From the IMG/VR virus record IMGVR_UViG_2917398303_000003: a DNA stretch of 36,377 bases; one strand, given 5' to 3'. The notes under the pieces are model-generated. The model ran no database searches. It saw only the letters and a program-made list of their open reading frames with translations, and was not told the origin of the DNA. The translations under genes were made by a program, and so were the position numbers. The stretch comes from a virus (taxonomy: Duplodnaviria > Heunggongvirae > Uroviricota > Caudoviricetes). Numbering within the stretch: position 1 is the first letter of the stretch; each line of letters opens with the position of its first letter. Shown here piece by piece: positions 1 to 16,251 of this stretch.

Positions 1-1053
1 TTACGGGGTAATGCCAACCGCTGCCGCCACTTTGTCGCCACTTGGCAGCGTTGCCAGAGGATTGAAACGGAGCGCCGTTTCCAGATGATCCGGTGCCAGA
101 TGTGCGTAACGCATAGTCATTTTTATATCGTGGTGTCCGAGAATTTTTTGTAAGGCCAGAATGTTTCCACCCGACATCATGAAGTGCGCCGCAAACGTAT
201 GGCGCAGAACGTGTGTGAGTTGACCGCGAGGGAGCACGATAGACGTTTTTTCCATCACGGATAAAAATTGAAAATAGCAATCTGTGAAGAAATTGAACCC
301 ATCAAGCGCCATGATCTCTTCGTAAAGCTCTTTACTGATAGGGATGCTTCTGTTTTTCTTCCCCTTCGTTCTGACAAAGGTAATTCGGTATTTGGTCACC
401 TGTGAGCGGGTAAGATTTACGGCTTCACGCCATCGTGCGCCTGTGCTTAAGCATATCTTAACTACCAGTGCCAGAATTGGGTCCTGACGTTTGCAATCAG
501 CCAGCAATTCAACAATCTGCTCATGGGTAAGCCATGCCATCTCTTTTTCTGCGATGGTGAATTTTCGCATGTTCTCCAGTGGGTTCGGATACGACCATTC
601 GCCCAGACGGGATAGTTCGCTAAAAACACTACTTAGATAGCTTTGCTCCAGGTTAATGGTGACCGGGCTGGCTCCTTTCTTCCATTTCTCGCTGAAGTAG
701 ATCTCACCTGTCAGTCGTTTATCTCGATAATGGGCAAACATTTTAGATGTGAGATCGGTTGCAAGGGGATTGCCCAGAGCGTCAACCATCAGCAGCAATT
801 TGTCATAGACATGCTGCCCAGCAGTCAGAGATTTACCATGTAGTTTGAACCATAGTTCAACTACGTCTTTCAGTGTTCGACGATCCACTGATTCACCCAG
901 CCAGGGCTTTGCTTCGGTTTCTTCCATCGTGTGGCGCTCAAAAGCCAGAGCTTCGCCTTTGGTGGCGAATTGTTTACGCACACGACGCCCACTGCGTCCG
1001 GCGGGGTAACATTCGCAAAGCCATTTTCCTGTGGTGAGTTTTCGTACTGCCAT
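1..1053 (-). CDS. int: Tyrosine integrase (P2/186 Int family)
   Basis: ORF track 1..1131 (-). Start placed at the internal Met (MAVRKLTTGKW...) at 1053, which has a GGAGGG RBS 7 nt upstream; stop is at 1-3. C-terminal catalytic region HVLRHTFAAHF...GHHDIKMTMRYAHL fits the tyrosine-recombinase R-H-R-Y signature. Position at the prophage end next to cI. Confidence 0.9.
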   Translation of the reverse strand: MAVRKLTTGKWLCECYPAGRSGRRVRKQFATKGEALAFERHTMEETEAKPWLGESVDRRTLKDVVELWFKLHGKSLTAGQHVYDKLLLMVDALGNPLATDLTSKMFAHYRDKRLTGEIYFSEKWKKGASPVTINLEQSYLSSVFSELSRLGEWSYPNPLENMRKFTIAEKEMAWLTHEQIVELLADCKRQDPILALVVKICLSTGARWREAVNLTRSQVTKYRITFVRTKGKKNRSIPISKELYEEIMALDGFNFFTDCYFQFLSVMEKTSIVLPRGQLTHVLRHTFAAHFMMSGGNILALQKILGHHDIKMTMRYAHLAPDHLETALRFNPLATLPSGDKVAAAVGITP

Positions 1054-1239
1054 AAAAAATGCCCTCCAGTAGAGAGCATTTTTACTGTATGTATAACCAG
1101 TGTCAATGTATGAAATCCTGCGACCATACATCTCACTGAAGCCATAATGAAGTTAGCTATTTTTTGCTATGTGAGTATGTGACTTTTGCGGTTAGCCTGC
1201 GGCTCATTGTTATATTAGGCGCAGATATAAAAGCAAAAT

Positions 1240-4230: not shown

Positions 4231-5084
4231 GCACCATCCTGAAATGGGCGGGAAATAAAACCGCCATTATGTCCGAACTGAAAAAACATCTTCCTGCTGG
4301 CCCGCGACTGGTTGAACCTTTCGCGGGTTCATGTGCTGTGATGATGGAGACGGATTATCCCAGCTATCTGGTTGCGGATATTAATCCTGATTTAATCAAC
4401 CTCTATAAAAAGGTTGCCGCTGATTGTGAATCGTTTATATCTCGCGCCAGAGTTTTATTTGAGGAAGCAAACAGGGAGGTGGCTTATTACAACATAAGGC
4501 AGGAGTTTAATTACTCCACTGAAATTACTGATTTCATGAAAGCGGTATATTTCCTGTATCTCAATCGTCATGGTTACCGTGGGTTATGTCGCTATAACAA
4601 GAGCGGGCATTTCAACATTCCGTACGGTAATTATAAAAATCCGTATTTCCCTGAAAAAGAAATTCGCGCATTTGCAGAGAAAGCCCAGCGGGCAACGTTT
4701 ATCTGCGCGAGCTTTGATGAAACGCTGGCGATGCTGCAGGTGGGAGATGTGGTGTATTGCGATCCGCCTTATGACGGCACGTTTTCCGGTTATCACACTG
4801 ACGGCTTCACTGAAGATGACCAGTATCACCTGGCATCCGTTCTTGAACATCGATCATCTGAAGGTCATCCGGTCATTGTTTCTAACAGTGACACATCCCT
4901 GATTCGTTCGCTGTATCGCAATTTCACTCACCACTACATCAAGGCAAAACGCAGCATCGGCGTGTCGGCTGGCGAGAGTAAATCTGCAACAGAAATCATT
5001 GCTGTTTCCGGGGCGCGCTGCTGGGTGGGATTTGATCCTTCGCGTGGCGTGGATAGTTCTGCTGTGTACGAGGTGCGTGTATGA
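4227..5084 (+). CDS. dam: DNA adenine methyltransferase (Dam-like, N6-adenine MTase)
   Basis: ORF track 4167..5084. ATG at 4227 has a GGAGG RBS. SAM-binding EPFAGSCAV motif near the N-terminus and catalytic DPPY motif (CDPPYDGT). Confidence 0.85.
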
Positions 5085-7264
5085 GTCATGCCGATATGAG
5101 CGACTCTAGCGGCTTTAACGAGGCCGCTGCAGCATTTTCATGGAACGGCCCGAAAAAGGCCATAAACCCTTATCTGGACCCGGCGGAAGTTGCGCCGGTT
5201 TCTGCGCTTTCAAACCTGATCACTCTGTATGCTGCCGATAACGAGCAGGAACAGCTGCGCCGCGAGGAATTGAGTGAACAGGTCTGGGAGCGTTATTTCT
5301 TTAATGAATCCCGTGATCCTGTCCAGCGCGAAATGGAGCAGGATAAGCTCATTAGTCGGGCAAAGCTGGCGCATGAGCAGCAGCGTTTTAACCCGGACAT
5401 GGTCATTCTGGCGGACGTCAGCGCCCAGCCCACCCACATCAGCAAGCCGCTGATGCAACGTATCGAATACTTCAGCAGCCTGGGCAGGCCAAAGGCTTAT
5501 TCCCGCTATTTGCGTGAGACGATTAAGCCATGTCTGGAGCGACTGGATTGTGTACGCGACAGTCAGCTATCTACTTCTTTCCGTTTTATGGCAAGCCATC
5601 AAGGGCTGGAGGGCCTGCTGATCCTGCCTGAAATGAGTCAGGATCAGGTGAAACGCCTGTCCACCCTGGTAGCTGCGCATATGAGCATGTGTCTTGAGGC
5701 CGCTTGTGGTGATTTGTATACCAACGATGACGTAAAGCCAGAAGAAATCCGCAAGACATGGGAAAAAGTGGCAGCGGAAACCCTGCGTCTGGATGTTATC
5801 CCGCCTGCGTTTGAGAAACTTCGTCGGAAAAGAAACCGCCGCAAACCTGTGCCCTATGAACTCATACCGGGTTCGCTGGCACGTATGCTTTGCGCCGACT
5901 GGTGGTATCGAAAATTGTGGAAGATGCGTTGCGAATGGCGGGAAGAGCAGTTGCGCGCTGTCTGCCTGGTCAGCAAAAAAGCATCTCCTTATGTCAGCTA
6001 TGAAGCCGTGATGCATAAACGTGAGCAGCGCCGTAAGTCGCTGGAGTTTTTCCGTTCTCATGAACTGGTGAACGAAGACGGCGACACGCTGGACATGGAG
6101 GATGTGGTAAACGCCAGCAGCAGCAACCCTGCGCATCGCCGCAATGAGATGATGGCCTGTGTTAAAGGTCTGGAACTTATCGCGGAAATGCGCGGTGACT
6201 GCGCCGTTTTCTACACCATCACCTGTCCGTCACGTTTCCATTCCACGCTAAATAACGGCAGGCCCAACCCGACCTGGACAAATGCGACGGTAAGACAAAG
6301 CAGTGATTATTTGGTCGGCATGTTTGCTGCATTTCGTAAGGCGATGCACAAAGCCGGATTGCGCTGGTATGGCGTGCGGGTGGCTGAGCCGCATCATGAC
6401 GGTACAGTTCACTGGCACCTGTTGTGTTTTATGCGCAAAAAAGACCGCCGCGCCATCACTGCATTACTGCGTAAGTTTGCCATCCGTGAAGACCGCGAGG
6501 AGCTGGGCAATAACACGGGGCCGCGCTTTAAGTCTGAGTTGATTAACCCGCGCAAAGGAACGCCGACAAGCTACATCGCGAAATATATCAGTAAGAACAT
6601 TGACGGGCGTGGTCTGGCTAGCGAGATCAGCAAGGAAACGGGTAAATCCCTGCGTGATAACGCTGAATACGTGAATGCCTGGGCGTCTCTGCATCGTGTT
6701 CAGCAATTCCGCTTCTTTGGTATTCCGGGGCGTCAGGCTTATCGTGAACTGCGATTGCTGGCTGGTCAGGCGGCAAGGCAGCAGGGTGACAAAAAAGCAG
6801 GTGCGCCGGTACTGGATAACCCACGCCTTGATGCCATCCTGGCTGCTGCTGATGCTGGTTGTTTTGCCACCTACATCATGAAGCAGGGGGGCGTACTGGT
6901 TCCCCGCAAATATCACCTCATCAGAACCGCTTATGAAATCAACGAAGAGCCGACCGCCTATGGTGATCACGGCATTCGTATTTATGGCATCTGGTCACCC
7001 ATTGCAGAGGGCAAGATCTGTACTCATGCAGTGAAGTGGAAAATGGTTCGTAAGGCCGTTGACGTTAAGGAGGCGGCAGCCGACCAGGGCGCTTGCGCCC
7101 CTTGGACTCGTGGCAATAACTGTCCCCTTGGACTCGTGGCAATAACTGTCCCCTTGCTGAAAATTTGTACCAACAAGGGAAAGACAAATCAGCTGATGGG
7201 GATACCAGAACGGATATCACCCGTATGGATGACAAGGAGTTGCACGATTACCTGCACAGTATGA
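5081..7264 (+). CDS. A: Replication initiation protein A (rolling-circle HUH endonuclease), reading frame interrupted near the 3' end
   Basis: ORF track (727 aa). HUH-like motif TVHWHLLCF and paired tyrosines YIAKYISK. Start overlaps the dam stop (ATGA). Position matches P2 gene A. The last ~55 codons are read through a 26-bp tandem duplication and look frameshifted. Confidence 0.85.
7101..7152 (+). repeat. Exact 26-bp direct tandem duplication (2 copies of cttggactcgtggcaataactgtccc) inside the 3' part of gene A
   Basis: Read directly: 7101..7126 and 7127..7152 are identical, followed by a partial third copy (cttg). Confidence 0.9.
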
Positions 7265-7521
7265 ACAAAAAAGAGCGCCGGGAACTGGCTGCAAGGTTAC
7301 GCCTGGTGAAACCGAAACGGCGTAGAGACTACAAACAGCGAATTACAGACCATCAACGACAGCAGCTCGTCTATGAACTGAAGTCCAGAGGATTTGATGG
7401 CAGCGAGAAAGAGGTCGATTTACTCCTTCGCGGCGGCAGCATTCCGTCAGGAGCAGGCCAGCGTGTCTTCTATCGGAACCAGCGTTTGCAGGAAGATGAT
7501 AAGTGGCGGAACTTGTATTAA
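7153..7521 (+). pseudogene. A: Displaced C-terminal segment of A (frame restored if one 26-bp repeat copy is removed)
   Basis: ORF track 7165..7521 (118 aa). Its frame is open upstream back through the repeat. Removing 26 bp puts it in frame with the A ORF. Confidence 0.6.
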
Positions 7522-7679: not shown

Positions 7680-7868
7680 ATGCAGGATTATTTTTTGGAG
7701 TCGTTGAAACTCCAGCGAATTGATTTTTTTCTTAAGCTTGTAGTGGCCAGTGAATGTAGTGATCAGGAAAAAGAGCTTGCGCTGCTTTGGATTTCAGAAC
7801 TGACGGATGAACTCATGGCAAAAATCAGAACCCACGAATATAACCGCTCAATGGATGTTGTTAACTGA
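7680..7868 (+). CDS. Hypothetical protein (62 aa from ATG 7680), first gene of a putative SOS-inducible pair
   Basis: ORF track 7632..7868. ATG at 7680 has a GGAGGG RBS. Confidence 0.5.
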   Translation: MQDYFLESLKLQRIDFFLKLVVASECSDQEKELALLWISELTDELMAKIRTHEYNRSMDVVN

Positions 7869-7878
7869 GGGGTAATTT

Positions 7879-8112
7879 ATGCGCATTGAAATAATGATCG
7901 ATAAAGAGCAAAAAATTAGCCAGTCTACCCTGGACGCCCTTGAATCCGAGCTTTACCGCAATCTGCGCCCCTTGTATCCAAAAACGGTAATCCGCATCCG
8001 CAAAGGTAGCTCTAACGGTGTGGAACTGACCGGACTGAAACTGGACGAAGAAAAAAAACAAGTGATGAAAATTATGCAGAAGGTGTGGGAAGACGACAGC
8101 TGGCTGCATTAA
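7879..8112 (+). CDS. DinI-family protein (Tum C-terminal domain-like)
   Basis: ORF track (77 aa). MRIEIMIDK...LDALESEL...KIMQKVWEDDSWLH aligns by eye with E. coli DinI (MRIEV...IDALAGEL...ILQETWESADDW). GAGGGG RBS 6 nt upstream. Confidence 0.7.
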   Translation: MRIEIMIDKEQKISQSTLDALESELYRNLRPLYPKTVIRIRKGSSNGVELTGLKLDEEKKQVMKIMQKVWEDDSWLH

Positions 8113-8225
8113 GAAACGTTGCCCCCAGGAGGATTCATTCTGATGGGGGCTAGTTTGGGCAACGAGTGAAACGAGGTGTAAGGTGGTCGGCCTGTTGGCA
8201 ACGTTGAAAAGCGAAAGCCGCAATA

Positions 8226-8645
8226 CTATAAATTAGTTTTTATTAGATAGTGCCTTTGTGCCCCTGCTTTAGGGAAATCAGGTAATGACATTTGAAGTAT
8301 ATAACCCTGTTTTTCATAAAAGGGGAGCGCCTGGAAGCTAAATGTATCGACAAGGCCATGAATACAACCGTTCATCAAACCTTCTTTCTCAGCCATGCTC
8401 ATAAGTTTGCTACCCAAACCGCCACTCCGTGCTGATTCACTCACCCAAAGATAATCAATACACAGCCATGGACCTTTCCTGTCCGCAATTAATCCACCTA
8501 CCATCTCTCCGATTTCATTTCTGCAGTAGACACCGATCTGTCCATTTTTACTAAAATCGATAAACTGAGCATTATAGCTTCTTAGCCCCGCTAACAGTTC
8601 TTCTCTATCATATTCAGTAACTTTATGAACTACTTGAATGTCCAT
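8226..8645 (-). CDS. GNAT-family N-acetyltransferase (139 aa), standalone cargo gene
   Basis: ORF track. Acetyl-CoA-binding motif of the R-x-x-G-x-G/A type ([11 protein letters not shown]). Opposite strand to neighbours. No adjacent small partner ORF is visible. Confidence 0.7.
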
Positions 8646-8905
8646 ACATATCCGTTTTAGTGATTATTTTATTCAGTGCTAAATGTTATAGATAAGTTTC
8701 CTTTATGTTTCAATGCATTGTTGTAAATTAAATCAATTTACCATTTCCGGGTCCCCGTTCCTTGCTCACAGCGAACCTTTAGCTTTGTTAGCTCGAATGT
8801 GTCGGTTTTCAAGTGGTCAATCAGATACGTACCTTCACCCCACTCGTTAGTGCATGTCTATGCCGCATGAATCCGCATGATCGTTTGAGGATCGTTTTTG
8901 CTGAG

Positions 8906-8931
8906 GCCCCCCCAGAACTGGCGGGCTTTTT
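8906..8931 (+). terminator. Candidate rho-independent terminator (GC-rich imperfect stem followed by TTTTT)
   Basis: ggcccccccagaactggcgggc can form a ~6-bp GC stem with one bulge, followed by ttttt at 8927..8931. Lies in the GC-richer cos-proximal segment. Confidence 0.3.
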
Positions 8932-8976
8932 GCTTATGTCATGCAGGTGCATGAAAATCACTGCATAAAGCGGGCA

Positions 8977-8995
8977 GGCGTGGCGGGGATACGAG
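8977..8995. other. Candidate cos site (19-nt cohesive-end sequence, P2/186-like)
   Basis: GGCGTGGCGGGGATACGAG followed by CGCGCGCT. From memory, the P2 left end is GGCGAGGCGGGGAAAGCAC followed by TGCGCGCT, and the 186 end begins GGCGTGGCGGGGA. Recollection only, not verified. Confidence 0.45.
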
Positions 8996-9066
8996 CGCGC
9001 GCTTGTGTTGGCCTCATACAGTGAATTGTAAATTAGTTTTACATATGTTATATAAAAGTTACGTTT

Positions 9067-10638
9067 ATGAAAATTGGAAATTTCGCTGTGAAATTGAAGG
9101 ATATTTTTTTAGGTAGTACTGATGCAAAAAATGAGTTATTGGTAAACAGCCCTGAAGAAGTGGAACGTTTTAAAAAACTTTATGTTGTTCCACCTGCGCT
9201 ACTCATTGAAAAATATTATTCAAATGATAAGTATTTTATCTCTGGTTTAAAGGGAACAGGGAAAACAGCTTTACTGCGTTATATTGCCCTGAAGTTAGAT
9301 GAGTCTGATAAAATCCACTCAAAATTCATTCTGTTCAAATCAGAAGTTGATGAGGAATCAAGGAAAGAATTATCTAGGGCATCAAGGCTTGGTATTGAGG
9401 AGGTTTTAGAAAATAGTGCTGATTACGATATATCAGATTATGAGGCTGTTTGGCGATGGTTTATATATAAAGCTATATCTAAAATGATAATTGAAAACGA
9501 TTTGGATGTTTTTCAAAATACTCCTTCTCTTGCAAATTTTCATGCGATAGTAAGCTCGGAAGTAGCTATTAAAAACAGAACAGGAATTATGCGGTTGATT
9601 CCTACTATAAAAAAAGGAAATATAGAAATAAGTAAATCTCCCAAGCTTAACCTTGATTTAAACTGGGGGCAGGATGGCGTGGCAAAAGTTGGTTTCTCTA
9701 AATTGGTCAAAAGTATTGATGCTATTTTTGATGAGTTAGTCCCGTCAACAGCAAGATTGAACATATTTTTTGATGAGTTGGAATTAAATTATTCAACTAA
9801 CAAACAATATCAACGTGATTCTCTTCTTATAAGAGATTTGATAGTCGTAATTGAAAAAATTAATGCTTTAGCAAAACGAAAAGGTTTTAAAATTTGCCTT
9901 TATGCTGCTATTCGCTCAGAGGTTATGAATTCAGTGGTTGCTTTAGGAAAAGAAATTAACAAACCATTGACGGATTTTGGTACGGATATATTTTGGAATA
10001 GACCTGGTGTTACTTCTGCACAACAACCACTGCTTCATATCGTTGAGCAAAGAATTAATAATGCTAGAATTGAAAAAGGTTTAACTCCATTAGATGGAGC
10101 AAGTTTATGGAAAGAGTACTTTCCAGATATAATACATAATAAGATACCTCAGACTTATCTTTTACATAATTCATGGTATAGGCCTAGAGATATAGTTAGG
10201 TTATTATTATCTGCTCAAGAAAGTTATCCAGAAGAAACAAAGTTTTCTACGCAATCATTGGAAGCAATACGCAAAAGATATTCTCAATTATCTTGGGTTG
10301 AATTGTCTGAGGAGTTGAAGGCTAAATATAAATCTTCAGAGATTGAAGCAATCAAAACTATTTTTTATGGATATAAGCAAATATCAACTCTTAATGAGTT
10401 TACTCAACATTGTGATGAGTTAAAAGAGTTTTATCCAGAAGTTGTTGACTTGCTGAGAAATCATTCGACTATGGCTTTGCTTAAAGATTTATTCAGAATT
10501 GGCGTAATTGGTAATTTCGATAAGCCGGCTCAAACTGAAAAAGGTAAGATGCGGTGGTCATTTAGGGGGGATGAAAGTATTCTTCCAAATCAGAAAATTT
10601 ATGTGCATAATGCACTGATTGCCTATTTTTCAATCTAG
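9067..10638 (+). CDS. Uncharacterised P-loop NTPase (523 aa); candidate single-gene anti-phage defence protein
   Basis: ORF track. Walker A GLKGTGKT at 9244..9267. Two hhhhDE Walker-B-like motifs (AIFDELV and IFFDELEL) around 9730..9780. An arginine-containing YRPRDIVRLL segment follows. No SD; a possible sigma70 promoter (TTGTAA at 9027..9032, TATAAA at 9051..9056) would make the mRNA nearly leaderless. The gene is AT-rich by eye. Confidence 0.8.
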   Translation: MKIGNFAVKLKDIFLGSTDAKNELLVNSPEEVERFKKLYVVPPALLIEKYYSNDKYFISGLKGTGKTALLRYIALKLDESDKIHSKFILFKSEVDEESRKELSRASRLGIEEVLENSADYDISDYEAVWRWFIYKAISKMIIENDLDVFQNTPSLANFHAIVSSEVAIKNRTGIMRLIPTIKKGNIEISKSPKLNLDLNWGQDGVAKVGFSKLVKSIDAIFDELVPSTARLNIFFDELELNYSTNKQYQRDSLLIRDLIVVIEKINALAKRKGFKICLYAAIRSEVMNSVVALGKEINKPLTDFGTDIFWNRPGVTSAQQPLLHIVEQRINNARIEKGLTPLDGASLWKEYFPDIIHNKIPQTYLLHNSWYRPRDIVRLLLSAQESYPEETKFSTQSLEAIRKRYSQLSWVELSEELKAKYKSSEIEAIKTIFYGYKQISTLNEFTQHCDELKEFYPEVVDLLRNHSTMALLKDLFRIGVIGNFDKPAQTEKGKMRWSFRGDESILPNQKIYVHNALIAYFSI

Positions 10639-10644
10639 AGTGAC

Positions 10645-10668
10645 GCGGTGCATTAAAAAATGCACCGC
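10645..10668. terminator. Perfect 10-bp inverted repeat (gcggtgcatt / aatgcaccgc, 4-nt loop) between convergent genes; possible bidirectional terminator
   Basis: Read directly. It starts 7 nt after the TAG stop of the 523-aa gene. There is no clear U-tract on either side. Confidence 0.35.
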
Positions 10669-10748
10669 ATTGAATATAGATAATGTAATTAATTAAAACA
10701 TGTTAATAATTATTGTGAGTTGTCGTGTAATATGTTTTTACTTTCGGT

Positions 10749-11783
10749 TTATGCGTCTAAATTATATTCTTTAAATTTTACGATTACGGTATTAGCCCAA
10801 TTGTTTAATTCTTCCAGTCGTTTTTGCAAAGGTATTAATTCATTTCGCACAAATACATTACTCGCCTTCTCCACATCTCCAAACCCCCCAACATTATTCG
10901 GCATAATCCCCATCATTTGCGGCGGCACGCGGTGCGCTGCCATCATGTCATCCCGACTCACGTTCTTGATGTTAAGAAATTCATCCTTCGCCGCGACTTC
11001 TGACAATGGGATGATCTGAAGCCCGTCTTTTTTGCCGTTAGGTGAGTACATAAACAGGTTGCGGAAGTTGCCAGGGCCTTTGGCGCTTTTCATCGCATTG
11101 CGGAGGTTGTTCACATCCTCCTGGTTCTGCGCGGCATCGGTCATGTACATGATGAAGCCTGCATGACTGCCGTTAATGTAATACTTGCGGCGGAACAGCG
11201 TGGCGGACTCGTTGAGCAGGGCGGACGGAATGGCAGAAAGATAACCGGGCAGGCCGTAGATCTCCTGGTTGATGTCCGGTTCCATCAGATGAAAGATGCT
11301 GCCTTTCGTGAACTGATACGGCTGGGTTGTCATACCGTATTGCACAAACCAGTAGGTATCCAGGTCTAACCCGCGTCGGGTGTATTTTGCCAGAGCAGGC
11401 TCAAGGGCGATAACTTCACCGAAGCGGTTCGTTCGTTTCTCCAGGTAGGCGTTACCAAATACCAGATAGTCCTGCACAAAACGTGAAAAAGCCTGCTGGC
11501 TGAGCAGCGGGTGAGGGATGTAGGTACTGGTCAGAATGTTGCATTTCACCGCAATTGGTGAACTGTGATGCACGGCAGCGCGGAAGGTGCGCGCCAGTCC
11601 GTCAAAGCTTACTGGCGGCTCATACCAGCGATCTGTCTGTACGCATTCCACATAGTCCAGCAGTTCGCGGCGGTCCAGAACAGGAACGGGATCGCCGAAG
11701 CTGAATGCTTCGGCTGTAGTTTGACTTTTAAGCTGGATCTGTTTCGTCGCCGCAGCTCGGTTTTTCTTACTCTTTCCCATCAA
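10749..11783 (-). CDS. Q: Portal protein (P2 gpQ homolog)
   Basis: ORF track (344 aa, the P2 gpQ length as I recall it). Overlaps the start of P. Same P-Q leftward operon as in P2. Confidence 0.9.
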   Translation of the reverse strand: MMGKSKKNRAAATKQIQLKSQTTAEAFSFGDPVPVLDRRELLDYVECVQTDRWYEPPVSFDGLARTFRAAVHHSSPIAVKCNILTSTYIPHPLLSQQAFSRFVQDYLVFGNAYLEKRTNRFGEVIALEPALAKYTRRGLDLDTYWFVQYGMTTQPYQFTKGSIFHLMEPDINQEIYGLPGYLSAIPSALLNESATLFRRKYYINGSHAGFIMYMTDAAQNQEDVNNLRNAMKSAKGPGNFRNLFMYSPNGKKDGLQIIPLSEVAAKDEFLNIKNVSRDDMMAAHRVPPQMMGIMPNNVGGFGDVEKASNVFVRNELIPLQKRLEELNNWANTVIVKFKEYNLDA

Positions 11784-13546
11784 AAAATCTCCACAATATT
11801 GCTGGTATTGGCGGATTCGCCCTGCAGCGGTTCGTTAAACAGTGCGTGCATCGTTGCCCATGCCAGATCGGCGTGGCTGGCTTCTTCGCTGCGGCTGGCT
11901 TCATAGGTCGGGCGGTTGCCGCTGGCGGTGGTGGCGCGACGGATTGCCATAAATGACTGCGCAATGTCGGTATGCCCGGCGTCAAACTCCAGACGGCGGT
12001 GGCTGATAATGTCGTAGGCCTTGAGTACCAGGGCGTTTTTAACGTTGGGGTTGTAGACAAACTCCCGGACGGCAGGAAAGAACGCTTTCACGTTCTCGTA
12101 AACCCCGTGACCAACGCCGGTTGAGTCGATGCCGATATAGGTCACGTTGTACTGCTCGGTCAGTTTTTTGATGGCGTCAGCCTGGGCGCGGAAGTCCATC
12201 CCGCGCCACTGGTGACGCTCAAGAATGCGAAACTTACCGCCCGGCACGGCTGGCGGTGCCACCACCACGCATCCGGCACTGTCGCCGTTCTGCGTACCTT
12301 TTGCCGGGTCATAACCGATCCACACTTCGCGCCAGCCAAACGGGCGCAGGGCCAGAGCATGAAAGTCGGTCCAGACTTCCCAACTGTCCACCATGCACGC
12401 CTGCAGCTCGCTGAGCGGAAACACGGACGCGAGATCGTCCACAAACTCGCACATCAGCAGGTTCTGGTATTCGTCCGGGCTGTACTCCATGCGCAACTGG
12501 TCAAGGTCGAACAGGTTACAGCCGCCGCGCACCGCATCTTCCACGGTGACTATCTGGCGGTATTGCCCGTCTGCGCACAGCAGGCCGGGGGCCAGATTGC
12601 TGTGGGACAGGTCGATGTCCACCTTGTCGGCCTTGTTGCGCCCACGGTTGAATAGCGCACCGGACCAGAACGGATAAGCACTGTGTGTCAGGCTGGATGG
12701 CGTGGAAAAATAGGTTTGTCGCCATTTTTTGTGAATAGCCATACCGGAAGCCACTTTGCGCAGCTCCTGGAATTTCGGTATCCAGAAATATTCATCCAGA
12801 TACAGGTTGCCGTGGTAACTCTGGGCCGTGCGGGCATTGGTGCCGAGGAAATACAGTGTGGCCCCGTTGGGAAGCACCATCGGATCGCCTTTCAGCTCCA
12901 CTTCCACTTCTTTGGCGAAGTCGATGATGTACTGCTTAAAGACGTGGGCCTGTGCCTTGCTGGCGGAAAGGAAAATCTGGTTACGTCCGGTAAGCAGAGC
13001 GTCAATCAGGGCTTCACGGGCAAAGTAAAAGGTCGCGCCGATCTGGCGTGACTTCAGCAGGTTGCGGATGCGGTTGGTTTTTCCGGCTTCCCACCAGTGG
13101 CGCTGGTAGTTGAACATGGAGGAATGGAAGATTTCTTCCAGCTTCTCAATCTGCTCATCGGTGAAAACATTCTTTTCCGGCTGACGGCGCGGGCCTTTGT
13201 TGCGGTTGGCGACGTTAGGGTTTAAGTCGGCTTCGTTGCCGCCATTGTTAAACTTGCCGATCCGCGCGTGGCGTTCCGACTGGCGCGCCAGCAGGTCAAT
13301 CTCTTTGAAATCTTTCCCTTCTTTGTGCTCCTTCATAATGAGCTGGCAGTAGCGTGCGGCGGTGGTGAGCTGCATCTGATCCAGCGGCCCATAGTCACCC
13401 CACTTGTCGCGTTTCTTCCAGCTGTGAACGGTTGCAACTTTCTCGCCCAGCATTTCAGCAATGCGGGCTACACGGTATCCCTGAAAGTACAGCAGCATGG
13501 CCTGCCGACGGGGATCGAGATCTGCGGGTGTCAGTGTGGTGTTCAT
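11780..13546 (-). CDS. P: Terminase large subunit, ATPase (P2 gpP homolog)
   Basis: ORF track (588 aa). N-terminus MNTTLTPADLDPRRQAMLLYFQGYRVARIAEMLGEK resembles P2 gpP as I recall it. Divergent from O. Confidence 0.9.
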   Translation of the reverse strand: MNTTLTPADLDPRRQAMLLYFQGYRVARIAEMLGEKVATVHSWKKRDKWGDYGPLDQMQLTTAARYCQLIMKEHKEGKDFKEIDLLARQSERHARIGKFNNGGNEADLNPNVANRNKGPRRQPEKNVFTDEQIEKLEEIFHSSMFNYQRHWWEAGKTNRIRNLLKSRQIGATFYFAREALIDALLTGRNQIFLSASKAQAHVFKQYIIDFAKEVEVELKGDPMVLPNGATLYFLGTNARTAQSYHGNLYLDEYFWIPKFQELRKVASGMAIHKKWRQTYFSTPSSLTHSAYPFWSGALFNRGRNKADKVDIDLSHSNLAPGLLCADGQYRQIVTVEDAVRGGCNLFDLDQLRMEYSPDEYQNLLMCEFVDDLASVFPLSELQACMVDSWEVWTDFHALALRPFGWREVWIGYDPAKGTQNGDSAGCVVVAPPAVPGGKFRILERHQWRGMDFRAQADAIKKLTEQYNVTYIGIDSTGVGHGVYENVKAFFPAVREFVYNPNVKNALVLKAYDIISHRRLEFDAGHTDIAQSFMAIRRATTASGNRPTYEASRSEEASHADLAWATMHALFNEPLQGESANTSNIVEIF

Positions 13547-13688: not shown

Positions 13689-14522
13689 ATGACAGTGAAA
13701 GCAAAGCGTTTTCGCATCGGGGTGGAAGGTGCCACCACCGACGGACGCGAAATCCAGCGTGAATGGCTGGAACAGATGGCAGCCAGCTACAACCCGGCGG
13801 TGTACACCGCGCTGATTAACCTTGAGCACATCAAGTCTTATCTGCCGGACAGCACCTTTAACCGCTACGGCAAGGTGACGGCGCTGTTTGCTGAAGAAAT
13901 CACGGAAGGCCCGCTGGCGGGCAAGATGGCACTGTATGCCGACGTTGAGCCAACGGAGTCCCTGGTGGAACTGGTGAAAAAAGGCCAGAAATTATTCACC
14001 TCTATGGAAGTCAGCCCGAAGTTTGCTGATACGGGCAAAGCCTACCTGGTCGGCCTGGCTGCCACTGATGACCCTGCCAGTCTGGGCACTGAAATGCTGA
14101 CATTCAGCGCCAGTGCGGCCCATAACCCGCTGGCAAACCGCAAGCAGAATCCTGCCAATCTCTTTACCGCTGCAGAGGAAACGGTGATCGAACTGGAAGA
14201 AATCCAGGAGGACAAACCGTCCCTGTTTGCCCGTGTCACGGCGCTGTTCACCAAAAAAGAGCAGTCCGATGACGCCCGATTCTCTGATGTGCATAAGGCC
14301 GTGGAGCTGGTCGCCACTGAGCAGCAGAACCTGAGCGCACGCACCGAAAAATCCCTGTCTGAGCAGGAAGAACGCCTGTCTGAGCTGGAGATTGCTCTGC
14401 AGGCACAGCAGACCGCCTTTAACGAACTGGTGGACAAGCTGAGCCATGAAGACAGCCGCCAGGACTACCGCCAGCGTGCAACAGGCGGTAACGCCCCCGC
14501 TGACACTCTGACCAATTGCTGA
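13689..14522 (+). CDS. O: Capsid scaffolding protein (P2 gpO homolog)
   Basis: ORF track (277 aa). GGAG RBS. First gene of the rightward head operon. Acidic coiled-coil-like C-terminal half. Confidence 0.85.
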   Translation: MTVKAKRFRIGVEGATTDGREIQREWLEQMAASYNPAVYTALINLEHIKSYLPDSTFNRYGKVTALFAEEITEGPLAGKMALYADVEPTESLVELVKKGQKLFTSMEVSPKFADTGKAYLVGLAATDDPASLGTEMLTFSASAAHNPLANRKQNPANLFTAAEETVIELEEIQEDKPSLFARVTALFTKKEQSDDARFSDVHKAVELVATEQQNLSARTEKSLSEQEERLSELEIALQAQQTAFNELVDKLSHEDSRQDYRQRATGGNAPADTLTNC

Positions 14523-14538
14523 TGGAGCACAAAACCTG

Positions 14539-15597
14539 ATGAAGAAGAATACCCGCTTTGCTTTTAACGCTTACCTGCAGCAGCTGGCGCGTCTGAACGG
14601 TGTGGCAGTTGAAGAACTGTCCAGCAAGTTCACCGTGGAGCCGTCTGTACAGCAGACGCTGGAAGACCAGATCCAGCAGTCCGCCGCTTTCCTGACGCTG
14701 ATTAACGTCACGCCAGTGACTGAGCAGTCCGGTCAGCTGCTGGGGTTGGGTGTTGGTAGCACCATTGCCGGAACCACTGACACCACCGCGAAAGAGCGTG
14801 AACCTGTCGATCCTACGCTGATGGTCGATGTGGAATACAAATGCGAGCAGACCAACTTTGACACGGTACTGACCTACGCGAAGCTGGACCTGTGGGCGAA
14901 GTTTCAGGATTTCCAGGTGCGTATCCGTGACGCCATCGTGAAACGTCAGGCACTGGACCGCATCATGATCGGCTTTAACGGCGTGAAGCGTGCGAAAACC
15001 TCCAACCGTAGCGAAAACCCGCTGCTGCAGGATGTGAACAAAGGCTGGTTGCAGAAAATCCGTGAGGATGCACCGGATCACGTCATGGGCAGCACCACCA
15101 CGGGCGGTGAAACCACACCGGGTGCGGTGAAAGTCGGGAAAGGGGGCGAATATGCCAACTTGGACGCCGTAGTGATGGATGCCGTCAGTGAGCTTATCGA
15201 CGTTGTCTACCAGGACGATGACGATCTGGTGGTGATTTGCGGGCGTGAACTGCTGTCTGACAAGTATTTCCCGCTGGTCAACAAAGAGCAGGAAAACAGT
15301 GAAAAACTGGCTGCCGATATGATCATCAGTCAGAAACGCATGGGTGGCCTGCAGGCGGTGCGTGCGCCTTTCTTCCCGCCGAATGCGCTGCTGATCACCC
15401 GTCTGGATAACCTGTCCATCTACTGGCAGGAAGATACCCGCCGCCGTTCAGTTATCGACAACCCGAAACGTGACCGGATTGAAAATTTTGAATCCGTTAA
15501 CGAAGCCTACGTGGTTGAGGACTACCGCTGCGCCGCACTGGTGGAAAACATCCAGATTGGCGACTTCAGCGCCGCCGCAGCAGAAGCCGGAGCGTAA
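14539..15597 (+). CDS. N: Major capsid protein (P2 gpN homolog)
   Basis: ORF track (352 aa). Position and size as in P2. Confidence 0.9.
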   Translation: MKKNTRFAFNAYLQQLARLNGVAVEELSSKFTVEPSVQQTLEDQIQQSAAFLTLINVTPVTEQSGQLLGLGVGSTIAGTTDTTAKEREPVDPTLMVDVEYKCEQTNFDTVLTYAKLDLWAKFQDFQVRIRDAIVKRQALDRIMIGFNGVKRAKTSNRSENPLLQDVNKGWLQKIREDAPDHVMGSTTTGGETTPGAVKVGKGGEYANLDAVVMDAVSELIDVVYQDDDDLVVICGRELLSDKYFPLVNKEQENSEKLAADMIISQKRMGGLQAVRAPFFPPNALLITRLDNLSIYWQEDTRRRSVIDNPKRDRIENFESVNEAYVVEDYRCAALVENIQIGDFSAAAAEAGA

Positions 15598-15600
15598 CCC

Positions 15601-16251
15601 ATGAGCCTGAGTCCCGCACGGCAGCATCGCCTGCGCGTTCAGGCTGAACAGGCCGCCCGTGAGGGCGGCAGCGTTCGCCACGCGTCGGGCTATGACCTGA
15701 TGCTGCTGCAACTGGCAGAAGACCGCCGCCGTCTCAAGGGCGTTCAGTCCACGGTCAAAAAAGCGGAAATCAAAGTGGAGCTGCTGCCGAAGTACGCCGC
15801 CTGGGCGGAGGGTGTCCTGGCTGCCGGAGGCGCTCAACAGGATGACGTGCTGATGTACGTGATGCTGTGGCGCATTGATGCCGGAGATTATGCCGGGGCG
15901 CTGGAGATCGGGCGTCATGCCCTGCGTCATGGCTGGGTGATGCCGCTGGGTAATCGCAATGTGCAGACCGTGCTGGCAGAGGAAATGGCAGACGCTGCGC
16001 AGAGCGCAATGCTTGCTGCCACCGGCTTTGATGTCGATCTGTTGCTGCAGACGCTGGAGCTGACAGACGGTCTGGATATGCCGGACCAGTCACGGGCGCG
16101 TCTGCATAAAGCGATTGGCGCTGTCCTGAGTGAAAGCAATCCGGCTTCCGCCCTTAATCATCTCAACCATGCGTTACAGCTCGATCCCCGCTGTGGCGTG
16201 AAAAAAGACAAACAGCAGCTGGAGCGCAGACTGCGCAATGACAGCCGCTGA
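15601..16251 (+). CDS. M: Terminase small (endonuclease) subunit (P2 gpM homolog)
   Basis: ORF track (216 aa). Position after N as in P2. Confidence 0.8.
   Translation: MSLSPARQHRLRVQAEQAAREGGSVRHASGYDLMLLQLAEDRRRLKGVQSTVKKAEIKVELLPKYAAWAEGVLAAGGAQQDDVLMYVMLWRIDAGDYAGALEIGRHALRHGWVMPLGNRNVQTVLAEEMADAAQSAMLAATGFDVDLLLQTLELTDGLDMPDQSRARLHKAIGAVLSESNPASALNHLNHALQLDPRCGVKKDKQQLERRLRNDSR

Follow-up and report, generated by a model that had tools for sequence, protein, structure and literature searches.

P2 packages its DNA from circular monomers. The coliphages 186 and P2 and the satellite P4 reportedly carry 5′ cohesive ends of 19 nt, a description that is said to go back to Ziermann and Calendar in 1990. 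P2 and P4 have in common a highly conserved cos site of 55 bp (PMC9594776). In P2-like phages the gpA-gpQ interval, which adjoins cos and includes the old/tin region of P2, is a defence hotspot (Rousset et al., 2022; PMC9122126), and a 2026 NAR paper restates the position of this hotspot next to cos. The segment between cos and Q is a site where foreign genes are acquired (PMC5694545, citing Dodd and Egan, 1996, and Nakayama, 1999). Reportedly, the retrons Ec67 and Ec86 replace the DNA from cos to the terminator tW in 186-related prophages (Dodd and Egan, 1996, Virology 219:115; PMC5694545, PMC6868368), and ctx of phage phiCTX adjoins cosL (Nakayama, 1999, according to PMC5694545 and PMC6868368).

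The window analysed here, the whole stretch of 36,377 nt, is an almost complete P2/186-like prophage, and its segment 8851..9002 is very probably, judged from the sequence, the cos site of this P2-family element, which probably resides in an Escherichia other than E. coli. The identification stands on sequence homology, on synteny, on the boundaries of the module, on relatives in which the adjoining slots are empty or hold alternative cargo, and on the presence of both terminase genes. The genes and slots that frame the site are the following:

1..1131, minus strand: integrase gene
5081..7521, plus strand: replication gene A (Pfam Phage_GPA), left-hand border of the hotspot
7879..8112, plus strand: DinI-like gene (Pfam DinI, 4.2e-23), final backbone gene before the left slot
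8193..8754, minus strand: left cargo slot, 38.3% G+C
8226..8645, minus strand: GNAT acetyltransferase gene (Pfam PF00583, 3.6e-10)
9004..10796, plus strand: right cargo slot, 32.2% G+C, with the ATPase gene, a hairpin and the final 16 codons of Q
9067..10638, plus strand: Sll1717-family P-loop ATPase gene (NCBIfam NF047389, 300 bits; phrog_13260, function unknown)
10749..11783, minus strand: portal gene Q (Pfam Phage_portal; alignment to P2 Q and 186 W), conserved right-hand border of the A-Q hotspot
11780..13546, minus strand: large terminase gene P (Pfam Terminase_5, Terminase_6N and Terminase_6C), expected to encode the cutter of cos
13689..16251, plus strand: scaffold gene O, capsid gene N and small terminase gene M, followed by tail genes
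15601..16251, plus strand: small terminase gene M (Pfam PF05944, Phage_term_smal, 2.6e-40), expected to encode the cos-recognition subunit

Both P2-type terminase genes (gpP, large, and gpM, small) are present in the same element as cos. The order of gene A (5081..), the DinI-like gene (7879..8112), cos (8977) and Q (10749..11783) is that of P2, 186, SopEΦ and MLG42, and the counterpart of the 7879..8112 gene is annotated as DinI or DinI-like in SopEΦ, MLG42 and E. coli relatives. The element possesses a DinI/Tum-like module of the 186 type. An ORF of 120 aa (7861..8223, minus strand), which adjoins the GNAT gene, was considered as a partner of that gene and rejected: it overlaps the DinI-like gene on the plus strand (7879..8112), has no family match, is unannotated in relatives and is probably spurious. 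At the right end of the window, the host flank (33600..36377) carries ybjL-ybjM-grxA. It matches 5422 E. coli records, at an identity of only 91.3%, and the host is therefore probably another species of Escherichia or a cryptic clade. An Rfam scan of the whole window gave no match at cos and a single match overall, the sRNA RybB at 33600..33678 (minus strand, 105 bits), which adjoins the likely right end of the prophage and precedes ybjL-ybjM-grxA, so that integration seems to have taken place at rybB or beside it.

The preliminary description had seen in GGCGTGGCGGGGATACGAG, followed by CGCGCGCT, a likeness to the cohesive-end region of P2 and 186. Both strings are present at 8977..9003, and the alignment check bears out the likeness for 186, P2 and P4, whose circular junctions were rebuilt by joining the record ends before they were placed in a five-way alignment with the window and E. 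coli M7424. In the P2 record bases 1..19 (GGCGAGGCGGGGAAAGCAC) are annotated as the left cohesive end and are repeated at the right end, and in the 186 record bases 1..19 (GGCGTGGCGGGGAAAGCAT) are annotated as cos. The 19-mer of the window matches the annotated 186 cos at 15/19 positions and the cohesive ends of P2 (annotated) and P4 at 14/19, and over 8940..9002 the identity to 186, P2 and P4 amounts to 73-78% (46-49 of 63 positions). Together with CGCGCGC, the 19-mer is identical to the cos features of SEN8 and Cartapus, both of which are labelled 'putative': the record of Salmonella phage SEN8 (NC_047753) opens with GGCGTGGCGGGGATACGAGCGCGCGC, its bases 1..19, annotated 'putative cos site', match 19/19, and its final base aligns to window position 8976, and the identical sequence of Elveevirus Cartapus (OV696611) falls inside a feature annotated as a putative P2-like cos. 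A BLAST search with 8700..9060 as query against 50,697 phage records returned matches in 80 of them, all within 8848..9004 and with E-values down to 1e-56, and the core 8848..9004 also falls inside matches to 1265 E. coli genome records; because so many phage and E. coli records match, the core is not a product of chance. The same cos block is also found in SopEΦ, Fels-2, RE2010, MLG42 and Klebsiella prophages, with a core that is 87-93% identical. The possibility of a true cos elsewhere had been raised as well, and no rival was found, 8977..8995 being the sole such match in the 36-kb window.

The base composition sets the site apart from its surroundings, as had been noticed from the letters: G+C reaches 52.3% over 8760..9000 and 52.6% over the block 8755..9003, against 38.3% in the left flank (8193..8754) and 32.2% in the right flank (9004..10796), and windows of 249 bp taken within either flank reach at most 45.4%. 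This GC-rich stretch of about 250 bp is exactly the block that is shared with E. coli relatives carrying other cargo, since 8755..9003 is common to E. coli F437, E423 and STEC383 at 81-88% identity and the cargo differs on both sides. The leftmost part of the block (8755..8847), some 95 bp to the left of the family-wide core, is kept solely among E. coli-type relatives, whatever their cargo.

The anatomy of the site was established by scanning one genome per species with the pattern GGCGWGGCGGGGA-N7-GCGCGC and by aligning, from -150 to +45, 78 distinct P2-family sites that were kept where the 19-mer fits the family. What emerges from these 78 sites is a single asymmetric module, 8851..9002, in which the cohesive end is preceded on the left by TGCAT repeats and a dyad and is followed by seven conserved bases:

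8851..8879, plus strand: three direct YGCATG repeats (at 8851, 8864 and 8874) of the distal left arm, conservation 0.8-0.99 in 78 sites
8906..8926, plus strand: stem-loop GCCCCCCCAGAACTGGCGGGC, followed by TTTTT at 8927..8931
8906..8931, plus strand: dyad GCCCCCCCAG-AA-CTGGCGGGC and TTTTT, GC-rich, with the core CCAG..CTGG
8940..8976, plus strand: proximal elements of the left arm, conservation 0.8-1.0 in 78 sites of different species
8940..8945, plus strand: CATGCA
8948..8957, plus strand: TGCATnAAAA
8961..8966, plus strand: CTGCAT
8968..8976, plus strand: AAGCGGGCA
8977..8995, plus strand: predicted cosN, the 19-nt cohesive end GGCGTGGCGGGGATACGAG
8996..9002, plus strand: right-flank heptamer CGCGCGC, 9002 being the final conserved base of the module
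8996..9003: CGCGCGCT, directly to the right of GGCGTGGCGGGGATACGAG

A conserved left arm of about 126 bp (8851..8976) thus stands against 7 bp on the right, and the columns beyond 9002 are without conservation among the 78 sites. Note that GCGCGC belonged to the search pattern, so that its conservation in the 78-site set arises partly by construction; the right border itself is independent of the pattern, as unconstrained BLAST alignments (80 phage and 1265 E. coli records) stop at 9001..9006. By mapping, 8948..9002 would correspond to the 55-bp core of P2 and P4, comprising 29 bp of the left arm, the 19-nt end and 7 bp on the right. Both flanks of this core of about 55 bp are present, TGCATnAAAA ... 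AAGCGGGCR to the left of the cohesive end and YGCGCGC to its right, and the core positions are conserved at 0.9-1.0 across the 78 sites. The long left arm continues beyond the 55-bp core in P4 as well, and the highly conserved cos positions are all intact in the window. The distal YGCATG repeats, which are also present in P2, 186 and P4, are candidate binding sites for the small terminase subunit. The cos arm holds 6 YGCAT sites within 129 bp, where the window average would predict 0.63; GGTGCAT shows no enrichment over the entire window. This density of YGCAT is equalled at one further place, a second cluster at about 10549..10677, which includes GGTGCATTAAAA, identical to a 12-mer of the P2 cos arm. 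As a decoy or relic cos arm this cluster was rejected: one of its palindromes is coding (YVHNAL), and the other is replaced by an unrelated hairpin in Enterobacter homologues.

The dyad deserves separate consideration, as it had been described as a terminator-like hairpin. A stem-loop and five T are indeed found at 8906..8931, and in the lineage of the window, as represented by E. coli M7424, the element is terminator-like; however, the dyad occurs family-wide, and the copy in the window has a degraded stem that folds with a z-score of -1.3 and is passed over by a terminator scan. In an alignment of 77 sites, 69% of the cells pair within the dyad, against 34-43% when the register is slid by 1-3 columns, the covariation score is 0.231, against 0.08-0.14 in the slid registers, and two outer pairs alternate C-G with G-C or A-U. 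Because pairing and covariation exceed those of the slid registers, the symmetry of the dyad is maintained across the family; such upkeep would fit a nucleic-acid structure and a dimeric protein site equally.

That the hairpin at 8906..8931 is chiefly a rho-independent terminator, and not a packaging element, is possible but doubtful. In that capacity it would stop rightward transcription of the early/DinI operon ahead of cosN and the right slot. The T-run found in the sub-lineage of the window speaks for such a function, as do the orthologue in E. coli M7424, which has a perfect stem followed by TTTT (-25.2 kcal/mol, z = -4.1), and 186, in which an annotated terminator, t95b, lies about 160 bp to the left of cos. 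Yet the T-run is confined to the subgroup of the window, most family members that have the dyad being without it, and the dyad keeps a fixed distance to cosN in the majority of the 77 sites, P4 and 186 among them. Moreover, the stem in the window has undergone a G->CC change, which creates one mismatch and a bulge, and the hairpin (-14.5 kcal/mol, z = -1.3) folds no better than shuffled sequences, 23 of 200 of which fold as well; the consensus terminator scan made no call at the window hairpin, and the nearest upstream gene here, that for GNAT, is on the opposite strand. The dyad is taken here as a conserved element of the cos arm that is terminator-like in this sub-lineage only. It is conceivable, though improbable, that the dyad, having gained a T-run in the sub-lineage, was recruited there as a terminator protecting cosN and the right slot against SOS/early-operon read-through.

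How the module might work can be outlined from the known members of the family, and we infer in this way both the cleavage positions and a role of the repeats and dyad in terminase binding. Terminase (M, 15601..16251, together with P, 11780..13546) would recognise the left arm, namely the three distal and two to three proximal TGCAT-type repeats, the GC-rich dyad and AAGCGGGCA. Staggered nicks, placed 5′ of 8977 in the top strand and after 8995 in the bottom strand, would then yield 5′ cohesive ends of 19 nt, as in P2, 186 and P4. Since only 7 bp would be required on the right, foreign DNA would be tolerated 8 nt from the cut on the Q side, and on the A side cargo would have to stay outside the left arm. 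The earlier suggestion that cargo had inserted immediately on both sides of the packaging site holds in this respect for the right side, where the cargo begins 8 nt after the cohesive end, but not for the left, where a conserved arm of at least 126 bp (8851..8976) lies between cosN and the cargo.

The asymmetry also bears on the order of packaging. In phage lambda, terminase stays on the end that bears cosB, and that end enters the capsid first. In the window the accessory elements are all located on the A side of cosN, and by analogy with lambda it is more likely the GNAT-side end that enters the capsid first. The 523-aa ATPase gene would then probably enter last and be injected first, which is the reverse of the order given in the preliminary description. 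A more speculative extension, for which packaging would have to begin at the arm-bearing end as it does in lambda, is that the right slot, as the last part packaged and the first injected, favours genes with a function on entry. Right-slot genes in the relatives examined nearly all point away from cos, the HNH gene of SEN8 being the exception.

Comparison with relatives places the end of backbone homology at about 8192, after the DinI-like gene. Between gpA and gpQ the gene content is variable, and both slots hold other genes in relatives:

E. coli F437: left slot, HEPN gene; right slot, three hypothetical genes
E. coli E423: left slot, DarT and macro-domain gene; right slot, AIPR-family gene
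E. coli STEC383: left slot, hypothetical genes; right slot, hypothetical genes
E. coli M7424: left slot, the same GNAT gene; right slot, three hypothetical genes
SopEΦ: left slot, orf12 and orf13; right slot, orf14 and orf15
SEN8: right slot, two genes, one of them for an HNH endonuclease
Cartapus: right slot, one gene (DUF4145)
Yersinia phage MLG42: left slot, empty (DinI, 68 bp, cos core); right slot, empty (about 220 bp to Q homology)

The cohesive-end sequence of MLG42 is identical to that of the window, and MLG42 serves as an empty-slot reference. The two slots have been exchanged independently, because M7424 has the same left and a different right content, and Enterobacter prophages have the same right content, a homologue of the ATPase (85% identical) in the same slot, and no left cargo. 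In the mechanism that we propose, the conserved block would divide the variable A-Q hotspot into two slots that are swapped independently by recombination. The gap between cos and Q is bimodal among species representatives in which Q was located, falling under 300 bp at 14 loci and reaching 1 kb or more at 16. Many other cos matches in the species representatives have neither A nor Q nearby and probably belong to P4-like satellites. We also would mention the genome of Chitinimonas sp. BJB300, in which at least five contigs carry a P2-type cos, three of them with the exact 19-mer of the window.

With regard to the cargo itself, the right slot (9004..10796) has no DNA match in the phage collection. 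The homologues of its ATPase are 516 aa long, which suggests a GTG start at 9088. P-loop ATPases of the Sll1717 family are widespread in Proteobacteria, and a Serratia homologue is located in a chromosomal island alongside genes for a reverse transcriptase (RVT_1) and PRTase-CE and a fragment of an integrase, a context that looks defence-island-like. No defence function is on record for the Sll1717-family ATPase; PADLOC returned for it a weak match to mad8 only (E = 4e-4), which is not convincing as a defence model, and for the GNAT gene no match. Searches of the cargo genes with PADLOC, PDB and PHROGs gave nothing beyond 'P-loop ATPase, Sll1717 family', 'acetyltransferase' and 'unknown'. An inverted repeat, GCGGTGCATT-AAAA-AATGCACCGC (10644..10666), is situated between the convergent ATPase and Q genes; it is very stable (z = -4.9 on the plus strand and -5.6 on the minus strand) and has no clear T-run on either strand, and the matching site is taken up by an unrelated hairpin in the Enterobacter homologues. 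From 10797 onwards the DNA is again homologous to other Q genes. The final 16 codons of Q (10749..10796) are AT-rich and fall outside this homology, and the C-terminus that they encode, though still like that of Q, has diverged. It would seem that the right cassette comes with a 3′ end of Q of its own, which points to recombination inside Q as the route of exchange.

The prophage may still be active, but two lesions have to be weighed here. Gene A contains a perfect tandem duplication of 26 bp (CCCCTTGGACTCGTGGCAATAACTGT, 7098..7156, 2.3 copies, 100% identity in TRF), which is absent from gene A of E. coli M7424, where the alignment shows a 26-bp insertion in the window. The duplication frameshifts the C-terminal part of gene A and splits it into ORFs 5081..7264 and 7165..7521, and the prophage may be replication-defective, or the duplication an assembly artefact. 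Because of the duplication and the weakened dyad, the prophage is possibly defective, and the site could be a relic, cos by descent and no longer used, that owes its survival to the young age of the element or to a function as homology anchor in the exchange of cassettes. We consider this unlikely. The shift of frame over roughly the final 130 codons of gene A and the G->CC change that breaks a stem seen in close relatives argue for it, but none of the highly conserved cos positions is damaged, SEN8 has the identical 19-mer, and the genes Q, P, M, O and N have their full length and match their families strongly; a single duplication, for its part, could be recent, revertible or artefactual. 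It is scarcely credible, finally, that the real packaging site lies elsewhere and that the resemblance is due to chance in GC-rich DNA, or to the cos of a P4-like satellite that has integrated: GGCGWGGCGGGGA-N7-GCGCGC does occur by chance in many GC-rich genomes, and P4-like satellites share the same cos, but the stretch of homology is about 155 bp long and reaches E-values down to 1e-56, the site lies between A/DinI and Q, where it is expected in this family, and is the sole match in the 36-kb window, and no satellite genes flank it, so that synteny and extended homology effectively refute this explanation.

Taken as the cos site of the prophage, the module has several uses. For annotation, it locates the packaging site of the prophage, and with it the ends predicted for the mature genome. 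The borders of the slots, given to the base (8193..8754 and 9004..10796), are useful for mining cargo genes, and the Sll1717-family ATPase and GNAT genes are candidate defence or conversion genes. It also provides a comparative picture of cos asymmetry in the P2 family, in which an arm of about 126 bp is set against 7 bp across the cohesive end. The further notion that the cos block is a fixed anchor, making of the A-Q hotspot two functionally different cargo slots, is speculative, and we hold it to be improbable.

A P2-type cos between two swappable AT-rich cargo slots is an arrangement already described for this phage family, and since both the cos family and the cargo hotspots that surround it have been published, the finding leaves this knowledge unchanged. 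Compared with the cos sites of 186, P2 and P4, that of the window likewise has its cohesive end between the A-side genes and Q, and shares the first 13 bases, GGCG-W-GGCGGGGA, the flanks AAGCGGGC(A/G) directly to the left and (T/C)GCGCGC directly to the right of the cut, and the TGCAT repeats; the dyad it has in common with 186 and P4. It differs from these sites in the last six bases of the cohesive end (ATACGAG in the window, AAAGCAT or AAAGCAC in the others) and in the T-run that follows the dyad. In P2 and 186, moreover, Q is about 170-180 bp from cos, whereas in the window a cargo insert of 1.75 kb lies in between. The Felsduovirus SEN8 and Cartapus, in which the 19-mer and CGCGCGC are identical, come closer, and these two and SopEΦ also have cargo from cos to Q; SopEΦ and several E. 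coli prophages have cargo on both sides of cos, as the window does. The cargo genes of SEN8, Cartapus and SopEΦ are nevertheless different from those of the window, and in MLG42 both slots are empty.

With the A-Q hotspot (PMC9122126) the locus shares variable AT-rich genes between A and Q beside cos, and the same locus in E. coli relatives carries DarT with a macro-domain gene, HEPN and AIPR genes; in contrast, neither cargo gene of the window convincingly matches a PADLOC defence model. The hotspot has been defined as the whole A-Q interval (PMC9122126; 2026 NAR paper), whereas in the window cos divides it into two slots, and in the hotspot literature examined a division by cos into independently assorting slots is not spelled out. 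The retron and ctx insertions reportedly resemble the right slot in that foreign DNA fills the stretch from cosN to the portal gene's 3′ end; they differ from it in that the cargo of the window is an Sll1717-family ATPase gene, neither a retron nor a toxin gene, and in that the replacement extends over the final 16 codons of Q. Finally, the cos of phage lambda (cosQ-cosN-cosB) also combines a nicking site with a one-sided, asymmetric array for recognition by terminase and host factors, but it has no sequence similarity to the site in the window, its overhang is 12 nt instead of 19 nt, and in the window the accessory elements are found on the side that faces away from the head genes.
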